Positions 13,599 through 47,024 of a stretch of 64,000 nucleotides of DNA are shown here, in pieces; positions within the stretch are counted from its first letter, which is position 1; each line of letters begins with the position of its first letter. Origin of the DNA: a virus; the IMG/VR virus record IMGVR_UViG_3300037515_000188, positions 1 through 64,000 of that record. The stretch is one strand, 5' to 3'. The notes below the pieces were generated by a model. It saw only the letters and a list, made by a program, of their open reading frames with translations, did not search any database and was not told where the DNA came from. A program made the position numbers and the translations under genes.

Positions 13599-13733
13599 AA
13601 AATATACCGGGAGTTTCTCGGGATTTTAAGCCTGCGGAGAACGGAGTTCACTGAATGAAAATTTGGTTAGCTGTTCAATGAAACAGGAATTTAACGGAAA
13701 ATATAAATTATTTTTGTAAGTTTAAAAGAACGG
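13599..13733 (+). mobile_element. TnpB omega-RNA-like right end / IS607-type miniature element (no tnpB)
   Basis: ACCG(T/G)GAGTT..GGATTTTAAGCCTGCGGAG...ATGAAACAGGAA...AAGTTTAAAAGAACGG resembles the tnpB 3' tail (T-V-S-S-T..A-C-G-E..M-K-Q-E) and an IS607-like GG end. Confidence 0.7.
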
Positions 13734-20060: not shown

Positions 20061-20226
20061 CCGTTCTTTTAAACTTACGAAAATAATTTATATTTTCCGT
20101 TAAATTCCTGTTTCAATGAACGGCTAACCAAATTTTCATTCGGTGAACTCCGTTCTCCACAGGCTTAAAATTCCGTGGAACTCACGGTATATTTCTCATG
20201 TTATATTAACATATTCTATTTGTCAA
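20061..20226 (-). mobile_element. omega-RNA-like miniature element with its own sigma70 promoter
   Basis: Reverse complement highly similar to 13599-13733; TTGACA at 20226-20221 with -10 just upstream of the scaffold. Confidence 0.7.
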
Positions 20227-27462: not shown

Positions 27463-28752
27463 ATGAATAATGAAACCCGCCCCATTCTAATTGGTAAAGG
27501 TGAATCTCTTATTCATCTATTGCCCAATTATGGAAATCGCCATGGTTTAATTACTGGTGCTACTGGTACCGGTAAAACTATTACTTTGCAAGTATTAGCT
27601 GAAGGATTTTCTAATATTGGGGTTCCGGTATTTTTAGCTGATGCCAAAGGTGATTTGGCCGGATTATCATATTCTGGAAATTCACATCCTAAAATAAATG
27701 CGCGAGTACAAAAAATTGGTATTAATAATTTTAAACATTCCGCGTATCCAGTAATATTTTGGGATGTATTCGGAACTAATGGACATCCTGTAAGAACTAC
27801 TATATTTTCACTAGGACCATTGCTACTTTCCACCTTGTTAGAATTGAATGATACGCAAGAGGGAATTTTAAACATTGCTTTTCGTGTAGCTGATGAACAT
27901 GGATTGTTGTTAATTGATATGGACGATTTACGTGCATTATTAAGATTTGTTGCTGAAAATGCGGTTATATTTTCGCAGCAATATGGTAACATAAATGTAT
28001 CTTCTGTAGCATCCATTCAAAGACGGTTGTTAGTGTTAGATCAGCAAGGAGCGGAAGAATTTTTTGGGGAACCTGCAATTAAATTATCAGATATGATTCG
28101 ATGTGATTCTTCGGGTCGTGGTATGATTAATATATTAGTTGCGGATAAATTGATACATAAGCCTAAACTCTATTCCACTTTTTTGTTATGGATGTTGTCG
28201 GAATTATGGGAAACCTTACCAGAAATTGGTGATCCTGATAAACCAATTATGGTATTCTTTTTTGATGAAGCGCATTTATTGTTTAATCATGCACCGAGAA
28301 TATTATTGGATAAGATTGAACAAATAGTGAGGTTGATTCGATCCAAAGGGGTTGGAGTATATTTTGTAACACAAAATCCGTTAGACGTACCAGACGAAGT
28401 ATTAGGACAATTGAGCAATCGTTTTCAGCATGCCTTACGTGCATATACTCCGAGAGACCAAAAAGCAGTACGGGCAGCAGCAACTACTTTCCGCACTAAT
28501 CCTAATATGGATACGGAACGTGCTATACTTGAATTAAGCGTAGGGGAAGCATTAGTTTCAACATTACAAAATGATGGTATTCCAAATATAGTGGATAGAT
28601 GTTTGATATGTCCTCCTACATCGCGTATCGGACCCATTACACTAGAGGAACGCAATAAAGTGTTGTCATGTAGTCCAATTGAAAAACATTATGATACTAC
28701 TATTAATAGGACTTCCGCTACTGAAATTTTATTGCAAAGAAATAAATCTTGA
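27463..28752 (+). CDS. DUF853 / HerA-like ATPase (YjgR-like)
   Basis: NRHGLITGATGTGKT, FFFDEAHLLF, VRLIRSKGVGVYFVTQNP. Confidence 0.92.
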   Translation: MNNETRPILIGKGESLIHLLPNYGNRHGLITGATGTGKTITLQVLAEGFSNIGVPVFLADAKGDLAGLSYSGNSHPKINARVQKIGINNFKHSAYPVIFWDVFGTNGHPVRTTIFSLGPLLLSTLLELNDTQEGILNIAFRVADEHGLLLIDMDDLRALLRFVAENAVIFSQQYGNINVSSVASIQRRLLVLDQQGAEEFFGEPAIKLSDMIRCDSSGRGMINILVADKLIHKPKLYSTFLLWMLSELWETLPEIGDPDKPIMVFFFDEAHLLFNHAPRILLDKIEQIVRLIRSKGVGVYFVTQNPLDVPDEVLGQLSNRFQHALRAYTPRDQKAVRAAATTFRTNPNMDTERAILELSVGEALVSTLQNDGIPNIVDRCLICPPTSRIGPITLEERNKVLSCSPIEKHYDTTINRTSATEILLQRNKS

Positions 28753-28801: not shown

Positions 28802-29029
28802 ATGCTAAATATCATGGGTGAATTAGATATTACAATTAGTGATCTTGATAAATGTTCTAAATGCAATCGGTATAATCAATTAATATTTCAAAATGCTGAA
28901 GGATGGTGGATTGCATGCGGATATCGCAAATGTAAACATCAGACTGGAATATATGAAGAACTTTTAGACGCCGCAGATATATGGGGTCTTAAAGCAAATG
29001 ATGAAATTTTAGAAATTATTACTGATTGA
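28802..29029 (+). CDS. Cys-rich hypothetical protein
   Basis: CSKC...C...C, W near the C-terminus. Confidence 0.65.
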   Translation: MLNIMGELDITISDLDKCSKCNRYNQLIFQNAEGWWIACGYRKCKHQTGIYEELLDAADIWGLKANDEILEIITD

Positions 29030-29059
29030 ACTAAATTGAATAAATATAATCAAAATCGC

Positions 29060-29087
29060 TTGACATATTTATAAATACGAGTATAAT
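29060..29087 (+). promoter_or_regulatory. sigma70 promoter with an embedded T4-type late box
   Basis: TTGACA-16-TATAAT with TATAAATA in the spacer. Confidence 0.7.
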
Positions 29088-29230
29088 GTCAATATATTCC
29101 CCATGCTTAGATTGATAAGGATGAGGTCAATTAAAATTTCTTATCCCATCCGGAAGGGACCGGTTAGCTACAATAAAAAAGTAATACCCATCTAAAGTAG
29201 CTACGGATGGGACTTTTCAAAGATGATAAT

Positions 29231-29312
29231 ACCGTGAGTTCCACGGGATTTTAAGCCTGCGGAGAACGGAGTTCACTGAATGAAAATTTAGTCAGCCGTT
29301 CGATGAAACAGG
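29231..29312 (+). mobile_element. omega-RNA-like scaffold lacking the element right end
   Basis: Near-identical to 13606-13687, then diverges after GAAACAGG. Confidence 0.65.
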
Positions 29313-29520
29313 TGCTGATCCATTTAGGGGATTAGAATCAATGGTGGTAATAGAACCGCGCGATTGATACAGTTACATTGTTTCAGACAACTCTGGAACA
29401 GATGGTAGAAGGGCATTATGTTCTTCGTGATCATCGGGGGTGTGACATTTTATAGGTTTACCAGCGTCACATCAGGTAAATGCGGCAGGATGGGGCTACT
29501 TACCAACAGTTTTAAGGGTG

Positions 29521-29642
29521 GGTATTGTCATATAATTGGATTGGAAGGCTTGACAAAAATTTAACTGGCGTTACACAGTAAATACAAATCAAGCGACCGT
29601 GACGGGTAAACCGGGATCACATTCAAATCTCGGGACAATATT
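29521..29642 (+). ncRNA. pseudoknotted RNA motif, copy A
   Basis: CTTGACAAAAAT...CGTTAC...TACAAATCAAGCGACCGTGACG.GGTAAACCGG inside a gtattgtc/gacaatat stem. Confidence 0.75.
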
Positions 29643-29673
29643 TACTCCTTATAGGTTTTGTAATATATGCGCG

Positions 29674-29788
29674 AATCGTTGTTCTATGAGGACTTGACAA
29701 AAATCTAATTGGTGTCACCCAGTAGATTACAAATCAAGCGACCGTGACAAGGTAAACCGGGATATTATCAATCTCGGGAACAACGATT
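29674..29788 (+). ncRNA. pseudoknotted RNA motif, copy B
   Basis: Same core with TGTCAC/GTGACA inside an aatcgttgttc/gaacaacgatt stem. Confidence 0.75.
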
Positions 29789-29918
29789 TTAGTTTATTGC
29801 TCATGGTGTAATTTGATTCGATGTCGTAAACTTGAATCTTATCACCATGAGCAATTTTATACTTTCATTTATTGAATTAATATGTTATAATGCTCTTTCA
29901 TAACATGGATTACACAAC

Positions 29919-31025
29919 ATGTTCCAGCAAAAACTCTATCAGAATTTAATGCAATTGGTAACAACCAATGAGGCATTTTATTATGTGGATCATGTAATCA
30001 ATAATGTAATCTATCGTGTATTCACCTATCGGTTAGCATCCTATACGGATTTTCTTAATCCTGATGCATTAGAATGCAGAGGACATATGTTCCGTTTAGA
30101 TGGTGATGCCGTTAAATTGGTTTCATTGCCATTTACAAAATTTTTTAACATAAATGAAAACCCAATGACTATGGATTTAGATTTATCGTCAATAAATTTT
30201 GCTCATGATAAAAGAGATGGATCATTAATAGCCACTTTCAAGCATGATGATATGATATGTTTGAAATCAAAAACTGCCATTGCATCGGATCAAGCATTAG
30301 ATGCCACTAAAGTAATGCATGCTGATCAACGGTTATTTGATGTAATTACAGATTTTGTAAATCAGGATTATACGGTAATTATGGAATACACTGCTCCTGA
30401 TAATCGTATTGTATTACCATATCAAAATAAAGAATTGAAAATTCTTGGAGTACGTAACAATAAGCATGGGGAATATATTGACTATGAGCAGTTATACGCT
30501 GATATTCCTGAATACATGGTAGATGATTATACCGCGTCTATCAATGGAACTGTAGAGGATTTCATTGCGTCTATTCCGTCTATGAAAGGGATTGAAGGAT
30601 TTGTAATTGGATTACCTTCAGGACAACGTATAAAAATAAAGACTGAAGAATATCTTGCATTGCATCGTGCAAAAGATTCTGTATATTCCAATAAACGTCT
30701 TTTTGAAGTGGTATTGAATGAAGCATCAGATGATTTGCGTTCCATGTTTCATGATGATGAATATGTAATCAATCGTATTACTGAAATGGAAAATATTGTT
30801 GGTCATGCATATAATGGTTTAGTGAATTCTGTAGAACAATATTATTCCAATAATAAAGAACTTGATCGTAAATCTTATGCAATTAAAGGACAACAGGAAT
30901 TAACCAAAACCGCATTTAATCTTGCTATGATGAAATACACTGGTAAGAAACCAGATTATAAAAATATGTTGTTGAAAAATTTCAAGGATTATATTGATGA
31001 TAATGAGCAGGATGAAACTATATGA
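29919..31025 (+). CDS. rnlA: RNA ligase 1 (T4 gp63/RnlA family)
   Basis: ECRG.MF, PF.KFFN.NENP, KRDGSLI, EY.AP.NRIV, IEGFV, KIKT..YL.LH. Confidence 0.92.
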   Translation: MFQQKLYQNLMQLVTTNEAFYYVDHVINNVIYRVFTYRLASYTDFLNPDALECRGHMFRLDGDAVKLVSLPFTKFFNINENPMTMDLDLSSINFAHDKRDGSLIATFKHDDMICLKSKTAIASDQALDATKVMHADQRLFDVITDFVNQDYTVIMEYTAPDNRIVLPYQNKELKILGVRNNKHGEYIDYEQLYADIPEYMVDDYTASINGTVEDFIASIPSMKGIEGFVIGLPSGQRIKIKTEEYLALHRAKDSVYSNKRLFEVVLNEASDDLRSMFHDDEYVINRITEMENIVGHAYNGLVNSVEQYYSNNKELDRKSYAIKGQQELTKTAFNLAMMKYTGKKPDYKNMLLKNFKDYIDDNEQDETI

Positions 31026-37164: not shown

Positions 37165-37328
37165 CAACTGTAACTAAATATGATACTATATTTGAATGAT
37201 GGCTAGCATCTAGCATCATTTCAGTGAACTCCGTTCTCCGCAGGCGTAATCGGTGCCGGACATTCAGGCACAGTTGGCAGATACCTAGAAACTGCCATAA
37301 TTATATTTTTTAATACGGAATATATATT

Positions 37329-43748: not shown

Positions 43749-44853
43749 ATGGAATATACACTAATGCCCGATGTAACAGAAAATAATTGTACTCATGAAA
43801 ATTTTACAACGATTAAAAATGTAGGATATGATGCTGATCCTACCGGAGAAGAAAACCAACATATAGACAATTGTTTGGATTGCGGATGTTGCCGCTGGCG
43901 TATCGAAAGGTTACAAAATTTTACAGATTATCATCTAATACTCGGAGAATGGGGTAGTAATTGGTACTGGGTTTAATAAAAATATATCTTGAAAATAGTT
44001 GATTATTATGGTATGATATGCCATATCAAATGACCTAGTAAGGAAAATCAATCATGTATATTGTTTATGACATAGAGACTACAAAAATTGTAAAATCCTA
44101 TGATCTGGAACGGACAGCAAAAGCATTAGTCACCAGATTAAACAATGAAGCAACGTTCGCCGTTATTGCCTATACGGATGAAGATAATTATTATGCCAAT
44201 ATCGAAAAAATGATAGAACGCACTAATCTCATGACTGGTAAAAAATTTCTTGAAAGTGTAAATGTTCCTTATTGTTGTTCGCCATCATCTGAAACTTATT
44301 GGAGTTCATAATAAATATTCCTTGAAAATATCTGATTATTATGGTATGATATACCATATCAGATGACCTATAAAGGGAATCGGACATGAACGACACTAAA
44401 AGCTGGAAAACAATTGCCTATACCATTGAACGCACATTATTCTGGATTCTGTTAGTGGTGTCACTTTCATTCAACATCCTCGGATGGAATGATTATACTA
44501 CTATGGAATCACAAGTTAAATACATGAAAATGGAATTTGTTGATGATGTAGTAGGATATAATTATTGCGATAGAGAAGATAATATTTAAAAACTTCTGTA
44601 CAATGGTTTAGCAATATGATATAATGATTACATCATTTAAGGAATAACTTTAATGACTACTGATCCCGATTTTTTCAAAAAGCTGTATCTTTATAAAACT
44701 GCATTTTCGCCTTTGCATGATAGATATGTCGGTATTAAAAAGGTGCAAAGAGATGCATTTGGCGGCTATTGGATTACTGCTCATGTTACTGGATATCCTG
44801 AATACGAAACTTATTTATTCCGTCCGTTTGAATTGACAATGTATTGTCTCTGA
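43749..44853 (+). CDS. four small hypothetical genes (43749-43976, 44054-44311, 44386-44589, 44653-44853)
   Basis: Most have their own promoter. 44054 has the RTNLMTG..F.E....P.CCSPSSETYWS phage motif. Confidence 0.75.
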
Positions 44854-46229: not shown

Positions 46230-46421
46230 ATGTTTATAATTCATTGCTCAGATAATAAAGGAATAACATTATGCGGTGATGCTGATTCTATCATTCATTT
46301 AGCATATTTATTTGAACAAAACAAGATAGAATTTACTGTATCCGATAAATTTGGAACAATGGATCAAGATCAATTTGGATTCAGTGATTTTAAATTTTGG
46401 ATGATTAAAAAAAATTATTAA
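46230..46421 (+). CDS. hypothetical protein
   Basis: AGGA RBS. Confidence 0.65.
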   Translation: MFIIHCSDNKGITLCGDADSIIHLAYLFEQNKIEFTVSDKFGTMDQDQFGFSDFKFWMIKKNY

Positions 46422-46460
46422 TACTTGACAAAATAATTGAATTATAGTATTATTATAAAT

Positions 46461-46570
46461 GAAAGTGAAAGAGTAAGATAAATAGGAAAGTGGAAAAGTA
46501 AGATAAATTGGAGAAGTAAGATAAATAGGAAAGTGGAAAAGTAAGATAAATTGGAAAGAAAGTGTAAGAG
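46461..46570 (+). repeat. purine-rich tandem repeat (AGTAAGATAAAT(A/T)GGA x4)
   Basis: Directly visible; follows TTGACA-17-TATTAT. Confidence 0.85.
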
Positions 46571-46651
46571 AATTGCTGATGTGATTTTGCATTAGGAGCC
46601 AGTGGGTACACCAGTGAACAGAAATCGTAGCCGCGACTGGCATTTTTTTTA

Positions 46652-46773
46652 AAATGAAATAGTGGTTTAGAGAGGATTGACAAAAATCTATTGATGCCAC
46701 TTAATGGATTACAAATCAATCGACCGTGGCAAGGTAAATCGGAACCGATAGGAACCGGGCCACTTTTTCATTT
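46652..46773 (+). ncRNA. pseudoknotted RNA motif, copy C
   Basis: ATTGACAAAAATCT..TGCCAC..TACAAATCAATCGACCGTGGCAAGGTAAATCGG with compensatory changes vs copies A and B. Confidence 0.75.
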
Positions 46774-46796
46774 ATAATCAAACAAAGGATTTATTC

Positions 46797-47024
46797 ATGA
46801 TTAAAATAATTATAATTTGTATGATATTTGGCTTACTTGCGGGATGTAATGAATATTATTCAGAATGGCAAAATGCTCCAACATGTTATACTTGTACTGA
46901 AGCAGAAATGAATAGAGTACAAAATGAAGCAAAATGGTGTAAGGAAAATACTACTTATAAAGATACTTATTGCTTCGGTTCAGCCATTATGAGAATATGT
47001 CAAAAAAGGAATGTGAACCGATAA
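46797..47024 (+). CDS. lipoprotein
   Basis: Lipobox LAGC. Confidence 0.75.
   Translation: MIKIIIICMIFGLLAGCNEYYSEWQNAPTCYTCTEAEMNRVQNEAKWCKENTTYKDTYCFGSAIMRICQKRNVNR

Follow-up and report, generated by a model that had tools for sequence, protein, structure and literature searches.

The window analyzed here, a stretch of 64,000 nucleotides, comprises the initial 64 kb of an IMG/VR virus record of 109,848 bp that is estimated to be 47% complete and is very AT-rich (GC content, 28.7%). The record originates from sediment metagenomes. Its sequence is present in at least 11 sediment DNA runs among the runs listed, and contigs from four sediment runs were identical to the window, with zero natural variants. 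No RNA run was among those listed for the stretch. The first of the two loci studied contains a predicted non-coding transcript with two copies of the RNA motif described below; an Rnl2-like RNA ligase gene and a HerA-like gene are located upstream of this transcript, and a T4 Rnl1-type RNA ligase gene follows downstream (Table 1). The Rnl1 of the window is at most approximately 43% identical to the Rnl1 proteins of cultured jumbo and T4-like phages, and closer homologues with 60 to 73% identity were found. The HerA-like ATPase (positions 27463 to 28752), a near-full-length, bacterial-type protein of 429 amino acids, matches HerA_C (PF05872) with an E value of 1e-204 and is flanked by the two ligase genes. 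Directly 5' of the promoter of the non-coding transcript lies a 75-amino-acid ORF (28802 to 29029) that contains two pairs of Cys residues (CSKC ... CGYRKC) and is without a Pfam match. Apart from the two RNA ligases, the region also encodes DUF2958 and RadC proteins, which are typical host take-over or anti-defence genes. A search of the 110-kb record for a kinase-type AAA_33 domain, which served to represent Pnkp, gave no match.

The non-coding transcript is predicted to be driven by a sigma-70-type promoter that matches the consensus at all 12 positions. A T4-late-promoter-like string, TATAAATA, is found within the spacer of this promoter, and the Rnl1 gene has its own extended -10 element (TGTTATAAT) near position 29885. 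The only ORF of at least 40 amino acids in the transcript is a 48-amino-acid frame (29418 to 29564). The predicted RNA folds with a minimum free energy of -235 kcal/mol (z score, -7.1), and the two motif copies make up its 3' third. It ends after a long hairpin followed by UUUU, which looks like an intrinsic terminator in the fold models; this hairpin was absent from a simple terminator scan because its loop is too long for the scan. The 5' 430 nucleotides of the transcript (29094 to 29520) also fold extensively, forming several long perfect stems, and have no Rfam match; together with the two motif copies, they are predicted to form an unexplained large phage non-coding RNA of approximately 777 nucleotides.

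This 5' segment also contains an 84-nucleotide repeat (29229 to 29312) that is unrelated to the motif. Other copies of the repeat are found at 13604 to 13687 (+), 20107 to 20190 (-), and 37220 to 37249 (-), with 92% identity between copies. In the sediment runs, the repeat was present at 10 to 20 times the depth of its flanks and joined to other flanks, and it is therefore multicopy and probably a mobile element in the community. No sequence link between the repeat and the tnpB genes of the record (at approximately 68, 84, and 93 kb) was found.

The second locus carries a third, solitary copy of the motif in the leader of a small ORF, downstream of a sigma-70-type promoter with 11 of 12 consensus matches and of a terminator-like stem (Table 1). 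The Shine-Dalgarno sequence of the small ORF was single stranded in every fold.

Table 1. Coordinates of the motif copies and of neighboring features (window positions unless a contig is named)
Feature	Position	Strand	Details
Sigma-70-type promoter	29060..29087	+	TTGACA-16-TATAAT, 12/12 matches; from promoter scan
Predicted non-coding transcript	29094..29870	+	~777 nt, 40% GC, highly structured
Motif copy 1	29513..29651	+	P1, 29513-29529/29634-29651; P2, 29548-29553/29589-29594; P3, 29559-29583; loop L3, 29569-29574; pseudoknot partner, 29599-29604; GGUAAA, 29605-29610; P4 hairpin, 29611-29633
Motif copy 2	29674..29788	+	P1, 29674-29684/29778-29788; P2, 29692-29697/29734-29739; L3, 29713-29718; pseudoknot partner, 29744-29749; GGUAAA, 29751-29756; P4, 29757-29777
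Long hairpin, then UUUU	29796..29860	+	-26.9 kcal/mol
T4 Rnl1-type RNA ligase gene	29919..31025	+	Downstream of motif copies 1 and 2
Sigma-70-type promoter	46425..46453	+	TTGACA-17-TATTAT, 11/12 matches; upstream of leader with copy 3
Terminator-like stem, then U8	46589..46650	+	GCCAGU/ACUGGC; from fold; ends 2 nt 5' of copy 3
Motif copy 3	46652..46773	+	Two-part P1, 46652-46667/46759-46773; P2, 46675-46680/46716-46721; L3, 46695-46700; pseudoknot partner, 46726-46731; GGUAAA, 46733-46738; P4, ~46740-46757
75-amino-acid ORF	46797..47024	+	Lipoprotein-like N-terminus; starts 23 nt after copy 3
Papain-family cysteine peptidase pair	L181:11098-11913 and own record 66358-67062		Second position outside the window

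Fold and covariation of the three window copies

An earlier note on this DNA had reported three copies of a pseudoknotted RNA motif. Sequence inspection, blastn, and a covariance model built from the three window copies (R1) agree on their positions and on the plus strand. Within the 110-kb record, the copies share pairwise blastn identities of 83% (copies 1 and 2), 80% (copies 2 and 3), and 73% (copies 1 and 3), with E values from 1e-17 to 5e-6, and R1 retrieved exactly three matches in the whole record (E values from 1e-26 to 1e-31). A candidate degenerate copy at 29440 to 29520, which contains AGGUAAA, received no support from R1 even with the filters off. Copies 1 and 2 are arranged in tandem, 144 nucleotides apart, and copy 3 is solitary. 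The motif measures approximately 95 to 115 nucleotides, and the GC content of the copies is 38 to 40%, versus 28.7% for the genome.

The helix set common to the three copies comprises P1, P2, P3, P4, and a 6-bp loop-to-junction pseudoknot. In the 5'-to-3' direction, P1 is followed by a purine-rich joining strand that ends in RAGG, P2 (NNUUGA/UCAANN), an internal loop (CAAA(A)/ACAAA), and P3; the strand leaving P2 then reads CGACC, a hexamer complementary to the P3 loop, (R)GGUAAA, the P4 hairpin, and the return strand of P1. P3 is a hairpin with a loop of six nucleotides, all of which pair with the junction strand between CGACC and GGUAAA. The core is thus a multihelix junction in which P2, with its A-rich internal loop, continues into P3 and to which two more closing helices are attached. 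As the earlier note had claimed, the unpaired blocks CAAAA, (U)ACAAA, CGACC, and GGUAAA are invariant in the copies; RAGG and GGUAAA-N-CGG are further conserved single-stranded blocks. In the helix that follows GGUAAA, the first pair covaries within the family (C-G, U-G, and G-C) and is succeeded by the conserved CGG. The invariant ACC and GGU could form an additional mini-helix of 3 bp, a suggestion that concerns bases that never vary; the tertiary contact would in that case be a kissing loop.

The pairs described in the earlier note were recovered as well, and several results argue for their conservation. (i) P2 covaries between GCUUGA/UCAAGC in copy 1 and GAUUGA/UCAAUC in copy 3, and the pseudoknot reads CGUUAC/GUGACG, UGUCAC/GUGACA, and UGCCAC/GUGGCA in the three copies. 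(ii) The outer stems differ in sequence from copy to copy, with the pairing always kept; the P1 helices of copies 1 and 2 are distinguished by double changes at two positions and by the insertion of a pair, and that of copy 1 reaches approximately 17 bp in the fold of the full transcript. (iii) Standard pairs occupy 94% of the pair cells, pseudoknot included, compared to 86.4 ± 2.4% in shuffled alignments, none of which (0 of 500) reached 94%. Nine pairs changed on both sides among the three copies, versus 4.0 ± 1.4 in the shuffles. (iv) In the pseudoknot, 100% of the cells pair, with two double changes among the three copies, and pairing falls to 26 to 42% when the 3' partners are shifted by 1 to 3 columns. 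(v) The folding energy of each copy surpasses that of its shuffles (z scores from -3.7 to -4.4), and the fold is better on the plus than on the minus strand, with several G-U pairs that exist only on the former.

A fourth family member on the contig of an unrelated phage

Further relatives were sought with exact and degenerate DNA patterns in viral, metagenome, and genome contigs, and the hits were filtered using R1 and a script that scores P2 and pseudoknot complementarity. In all three collections, the strict patterns retrieved only chance hits that failed the model. A looser pattern yielded 75 loci in the viral contigs, among which the model and the script singled out one, located at positions 637 to 752 on the minus strand of L106, a contig of 27.5 kb and 51.8% GC from an unrelated phage. 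The remaining pattern hits were coding sequences (e.g., C5-methyltransferase genes) or promoters. Among approximately 130 pattern hits examined, L106 is the only one with both a perfect P2 and a perfect pseudoknot; by our own estimate, the probability of obtaining six of six P2 pairs together with six of six pairs in a hairpin-loop pseudoknot by chance is approximately 1e-6 per hit.

The L106 sequence reads AAGG-ACUGA-CAAAA-[P3 hairpin, loop CUACCA]-ACAAA-UCAGU-CGACC-UGGUAG-G-GGUAAA-GCGG and retains every invariant block, so that approximately 35 unpaired or junction nucleotides are invariant across both phages. Its P2 is perfect, with six pairs (GACUGA/UCAGUC) and a U-A to C-G exchange. The pseudoknot CUACCA/UGGUAG consists of six Watson-Crick pairs whose sequence is unrelated to that of the window copies, and across the four sequences, both sides have changed at five of the six pseudoknot positions. 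With only four sequences from two phages, the family is too small to give R-scape-type statistics any power. The covariation of the fold and the pseudoknot in the window, along with this perfect pseudoknot of different sequence in L106, bears out the proposal of the earlier note that the motif is a functional structured RNA. As possible functions, the note listed a ribozyme, an aptamer, and a protein-binding RNA without discriminating among them.

The connectivity of the L106 member differs from that of the window copies, in which the 5' and 3' ends exit through P1. In L106, GGUAAA is followed by GCGGUGC, which pairs with an upstream GCACCGC and thereby forms the helix that is the P4 hairpin in the window, and a 9-bp hairpin is located between the upstream GCACCGC strand and the strand joining into P2. 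When the closing helix of L106 is mapped onto P4 and its hairpin onto P1, every junction strand matches: P4 and P1 abut with 0 nucleotides between them, P2 is entered by a purine-rich strand that terminates in AGG, and the strand that leaves P2 is CGACC-hexamer-GGUAAA. The three-way junction of L106 thus probably corresponds exactly to a circularly permuted form of the window copies, as judged from one sequence; a perfect 7-bp match at the position of its closing helix would be expected by chance in roughly 0.6% of cases.

The L106 copy is single, lies outside any large non-coding RNA, and is situated on the 5' side of a 70-amino-acid ORF. Approximately 90 nucleotides before the motif, a terminator-like 10-bp hairpin with UUUU (L106:865-905, minus strand) follows the upstream ORF; L106 and copy 3 of the window thus share the same order of terminator-like hairpin, motif, and small ORF. 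The proteins of the two fragments that carry the motif resemble each other in a single case, a papain-family cysteine peptidase (23% identity; E value, 1.5e-5). No RNA-binding protein common to both fragments was found in these records, which are both only about half complete.

No additional members were detected in two more scans of viral contigs, and the family is thus present in 2 records among 2.9 million viral contigs. The scans of metagenome and genome contigs, which also returned no member, required TACAAA and would therefore miss members like L106, which has CACAAA. A second covariance model built from all four sequences (R2) found no further members in five phage records; a weak R2 hit at 43968 to 44049 corresponds to a promoter/RBS region. 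The only close Rnl1-bearing relative in IMG/VR is a complete phage of 316.8 kb (L034/G001), the Rnl1 of which is 64% identical. R1, R2, and the pattern all failed to detect the motif in this genome, in which the ORFs upstream of Rnl1 are densely packed, without a long non-coding gap. Searches with blastn against cultured phages returned no matches for the motif, L106, or the locus, and a literature search returned nothing relevant to the motif.

The repeats might also be read at the DNA level, as promoters, protein-binding sites, or remnants of a mobile element in which pairing is incidental. A TTGACA sequence does occur inside the conserved block, and the 84-nucleotide repeat, another multicopy element, is found in the same non-coding region. 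However, the TTGACA is not followed by a conserved -10 element: the hexamers 16 to 18 bp downstream are ACACAG, ACCCAG, and CTTAAT in the three window copies; L106 has ACCGAC at this distance, and its block itself reads CTGACA; and promoter scans listed no promoter at the TTGACA of the motif copies. There are no conserved terminal repeats either, the stems vary with their pairing kept, including by G-U pairs that exist only on the plus strand, and the pseudoknot covaries in an unrelated phage. We consequently disfavor this reading as very improbable.

Comparison with known RNA families

At gathering scores, Rfam 15 (4,227 models) identified only five tRNAs in the whole window. Scans at an E value of ≤10 of the regions 29400 to 29900, 29030 to 29560, 46400 to 46830, and L106:540-960 gave no match that overlaps any copy. 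This model set includes hammerhead, twister, twister-sister, pistol, hatchet, HDV-like, YrlA, pRNA, GOLLD, and ROOL RNAs and all riboswitch classes, and the result agrees with the earlier note, in which the motif could not be matched to the consensus of known ribozymes. The nearest match, to the RAGATH-1 hammerhead (E value, 7.9), falls outside the motif, on the opposite strand of the terminator hairpin. The element is thus very probably a real and new family of structured RNAs, carried in the sense orientation by phage transcripts and known from four members in two phages. In these sequence comparisons, it appears unrelated to any catalogued family and represents a credible new RNA class.

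By architecture, the closest counterparts of the motif are small pseudoknotted ribozymes and junction-type aptamers. The pistol ribozyme (RF02679) likewise has a hairpin loop of six nucleotides that is fully paired with a downstream six-nucleotide strand, an A-rich linker after the hairpin that precedes further helices, and an occurrence in phage and metagenome DNA. The two differ in that P2 of the motif encloses the pseudoknotted hairpin, whereas P2 of pistol encloses the pseudoknot partner and P3; other nucleotides are conserved, and no G-U cleavage-site context is identifiable in the motif. Despite the shared six-nucleotide loop pseudoknot, we therefore do not assign the motif to pistol, given that its P2 closes around the hairpin and that the Rfam model does not match. 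Hammerhead and twister ribozymes resemble the motif in that their helices surround a conserved junction with a loop-mediated tertiary contact and in that they occur in permuted forms and as tandem and scattered phage copies with no fixed neighboring gene; circularly permuted forms are typical of both. However, the hammerhead core (CUGANGA / GAAA / UH) is absent, the junction strands being CAAAA, ACAAA, CGACC, and GGUAAA, and the twister core is absent as well.

Aptamers of the SAM-I type share with the motif a multihelix junction, an arm whose internal loop allows its terminal loop to pair with a junction strand, and many invariant junction nucleotides. The motif differs from them in that it has no sequence similarity, kink-turn, expression platform, or metabolic genes and in the permuted connectivity of L106. 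When P1 was forbidden to form, the terminator hairpin downstream of copy 2 and the Shine-Dalgarno sequence of the ORF downstream of copy 3 were unchanged, the terminator forming with or without P1 of copy 2, and no alternative pairing that links P1 to a terminator or a Shine-Dalgarno sequence was found. Nor is there a recurrent gene family downstream, since the three loci are followed by Rnl1, the 75-amino-acid lipoprotein-like ORF, and an unrelated 70-amino-acid ORF, respectively.

These observations bear on a reading of the motif as a small-molecule aptamer, either an unconventional riboswitch or an RNA that sequesters a ligand such as a host signalling nucleotide. Many riboswitch aptamers likewise combine a compact junction rich in invariant unpaired nucleotides with a pocket-closing pseudoknot, the tandem layout recalls tandem aptamers, conservation in unrelated phages fits a universal ligand, and the region is rich in genes of the host take-over type listed above. 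Such an aptamer would nevertheless lack an expression platform and would precede unrelated genes. In addition, the apparent permutation, by which the 5' and 3' termini come to lie in a different helix, would be unusual for a riboswitch, and riboswitch classes are usually widespread, whereas this family is extremely rare. On balance, we regard an aptamer as unlikely.

The absence of an expression platform and of a gene-family association is also compatible with binding of a highly conserved host macromolecule (RNA polymerase, the ribosome, an RNA-binding protein, or an RNase), in cis or as a decoy. One example would be processive antitermination in early operons of the type mediated by putL and putR of phage HK022, with read-through of the terminator before Rnl1 and of downstream terminators. 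Like the motif, put RNAs are phage-specific cis RNAs that are present in more than one copy in separate operons, downstream of early promoters and without an expression platform. All four copies of the motif are on the sense strand, 3' of promoters and 5' of genes, copies 1 and 2 are directly 5' of the strong terminator hairpin that precedes Rnl1, and the junction into P2 carries the conserved RAGG(A). On the other hand, put RNAs consist of two simple stem-loops and have no pseudoknot; in two of the three loci, those of copy 3 and L106, the nearest terminator-like hairpin precedes the motif instead of following it; conservation of approximately 35 nucleotides would be tighter than usual for protein-binding RNAs; and the two fragments have no phage RNA-binding protein in common. 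This reading, which we rank second, is possible but doubtful.

Three further systems were rejected. (i) RNAs of type III toxin-antitoxin systems (ToxI, CptI) are similar in that tandem pseudoknot units are followed by a terminator and a gene, but their units measure 34 to 45 nucleotides, compared to approximately 144 nucleotides here, where two tandem units occur besides solitary copies (copy 3 and L106); moreover, the downstream gene encodes a T4_Rnl1-type ligase and not an endoRNase of the ToxN/CptN type. (ii) An omega RNA of TnpB/IS200-605 elements was discarded because both flanks of the motif pair in P1, leaving no free guide; neither R1 nor R2 detected a copy at the tnpB genes of the record. 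(iii) As to a Y RNA (YrlA)/Rsr system, the 110-kb record, at 47% completeness, yielded no TROVE match, and Rfam gave no YrlA match.

Candidate functions of the motif

Approximately 35 nucleotides are nearly invariant across phages with 29% versus 52% GC, and the function is therefore likely to be set either by chemistry or by an ultraconserved host machine. This suggests catalysis, a small ligand, or such a host machine as the constraint rather than a coevolving phage protein. We tentatively rank first a self-cleaving or processing ribozyme because the motif has neither an expression platform nor a gene association, occurs in tandem as well as solitary copies, has a probable permuted form, and contains a pistol-like pseudoknot. 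As a module that would work alone, without a partner gene, such a small ribozyme would process the transcripts in which it resides by self-cleavage; it would trim the 3' part of the 777-nucleotide RNA at copies 1 and 2 and cut the leader before the small ORF at copy 3 and in L106. With similar reserve, it might constitute a new ribozyme class that is phage-borne, is naturally circularly permuted, and is built from a junction and a fully paired six-nucleotide loop pseudoknot. Several points weigh against self-cleavage. No cleavage site can be named in the motif, and its many conserved adenosines could have a purely structural role, contacting the minor groove of the pseudoknot. Self-cleaving classes are seldom discovered, and by our own estimate, most novel motifs with such features are not ribozymes. 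In two of the three loci, the motif is located just 5' of an ORF, which also fits a cis-regulatory or RNA-polymerase-directed role. Furthermore, the family consists of four sequences from two phages, and the permutation is derived from one of them.

Cuts at equivalent sites of copies 1 and 2 would set free a unit of approximately 144 nucleotides with 5'-OH and 2',3'-cyclic phosphate ends, which the neighboring Rnl1- and Rnl2-type ligases might re-seal or circularize. A tie to the adjacent ligases, at which the earlier note had hinted, received no support: no Rnl1 or Rnl2 homologue was found in the second phage fragment, and copy 3 is not beside a ligase gene. The Rnl1-type gene is a neighbor of copies 1 and 2; we consider a coupling of cleavage to the two ligases highly improbable.

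As an alternative to self-cleavage, the motif may be a structural or stability module, i.e., nuclease-resistant end protection or an architectural or oligomerizing domain of the 777-nucleotide RNA. Its copies form the 3' third of this very stable RNA or, in copy 3 and L106, stand at the 5' side of small ORFs, and the exonuclease-resistant RNAs of flaviviruses are likewise tandem modules of a junction plus a pseudoknot. Between copies 1 and 2, loop and partner hexamers are also compatible in part, but the hexamers covary within each copy, which indicates pairing in cis. A purely protective fold would not need some 35 invariant nucleotides across phages, and the single L106 copy lies outside any large non-coding RNA. 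This module seems to us quite unlikely, and self-cleavage is retained as the first candidate.

Approximately 10 natural classes of self-cleaving ribozymes and approximately 50 of riboswitches are known. New classes of complex-folded, strongly conserved RNAs have so far been informative for RNA chemistry and useful as tools, and the motif shares the marks of earlier such classes, namely, invariant unpaired nucleotides, a covarying pseudoknot, a distribution over unrelated phages, and a form that is probably permuted. Should it lack catalytic activity, it would be a conserved phage RNA that must recognize something universal in very different hosts. At its size, the motif is small enough for quick bench work.

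A further repeated element is found upstream of copy 3. Between the promoter and the terminator-like stem with U8, positions 46461 to 46562 form a purine-only tandem repeat with a period of approximately 21 to 25 nucleotides and roughly four copies of a unit like GUAAGAUAAAUWGGARAGUGGAAAA. The repeat contains many GGA triplets, and its transcript could therefore be a small RNA that titrates a protein of the CsrA/RsmA type or another purine-binding protein.
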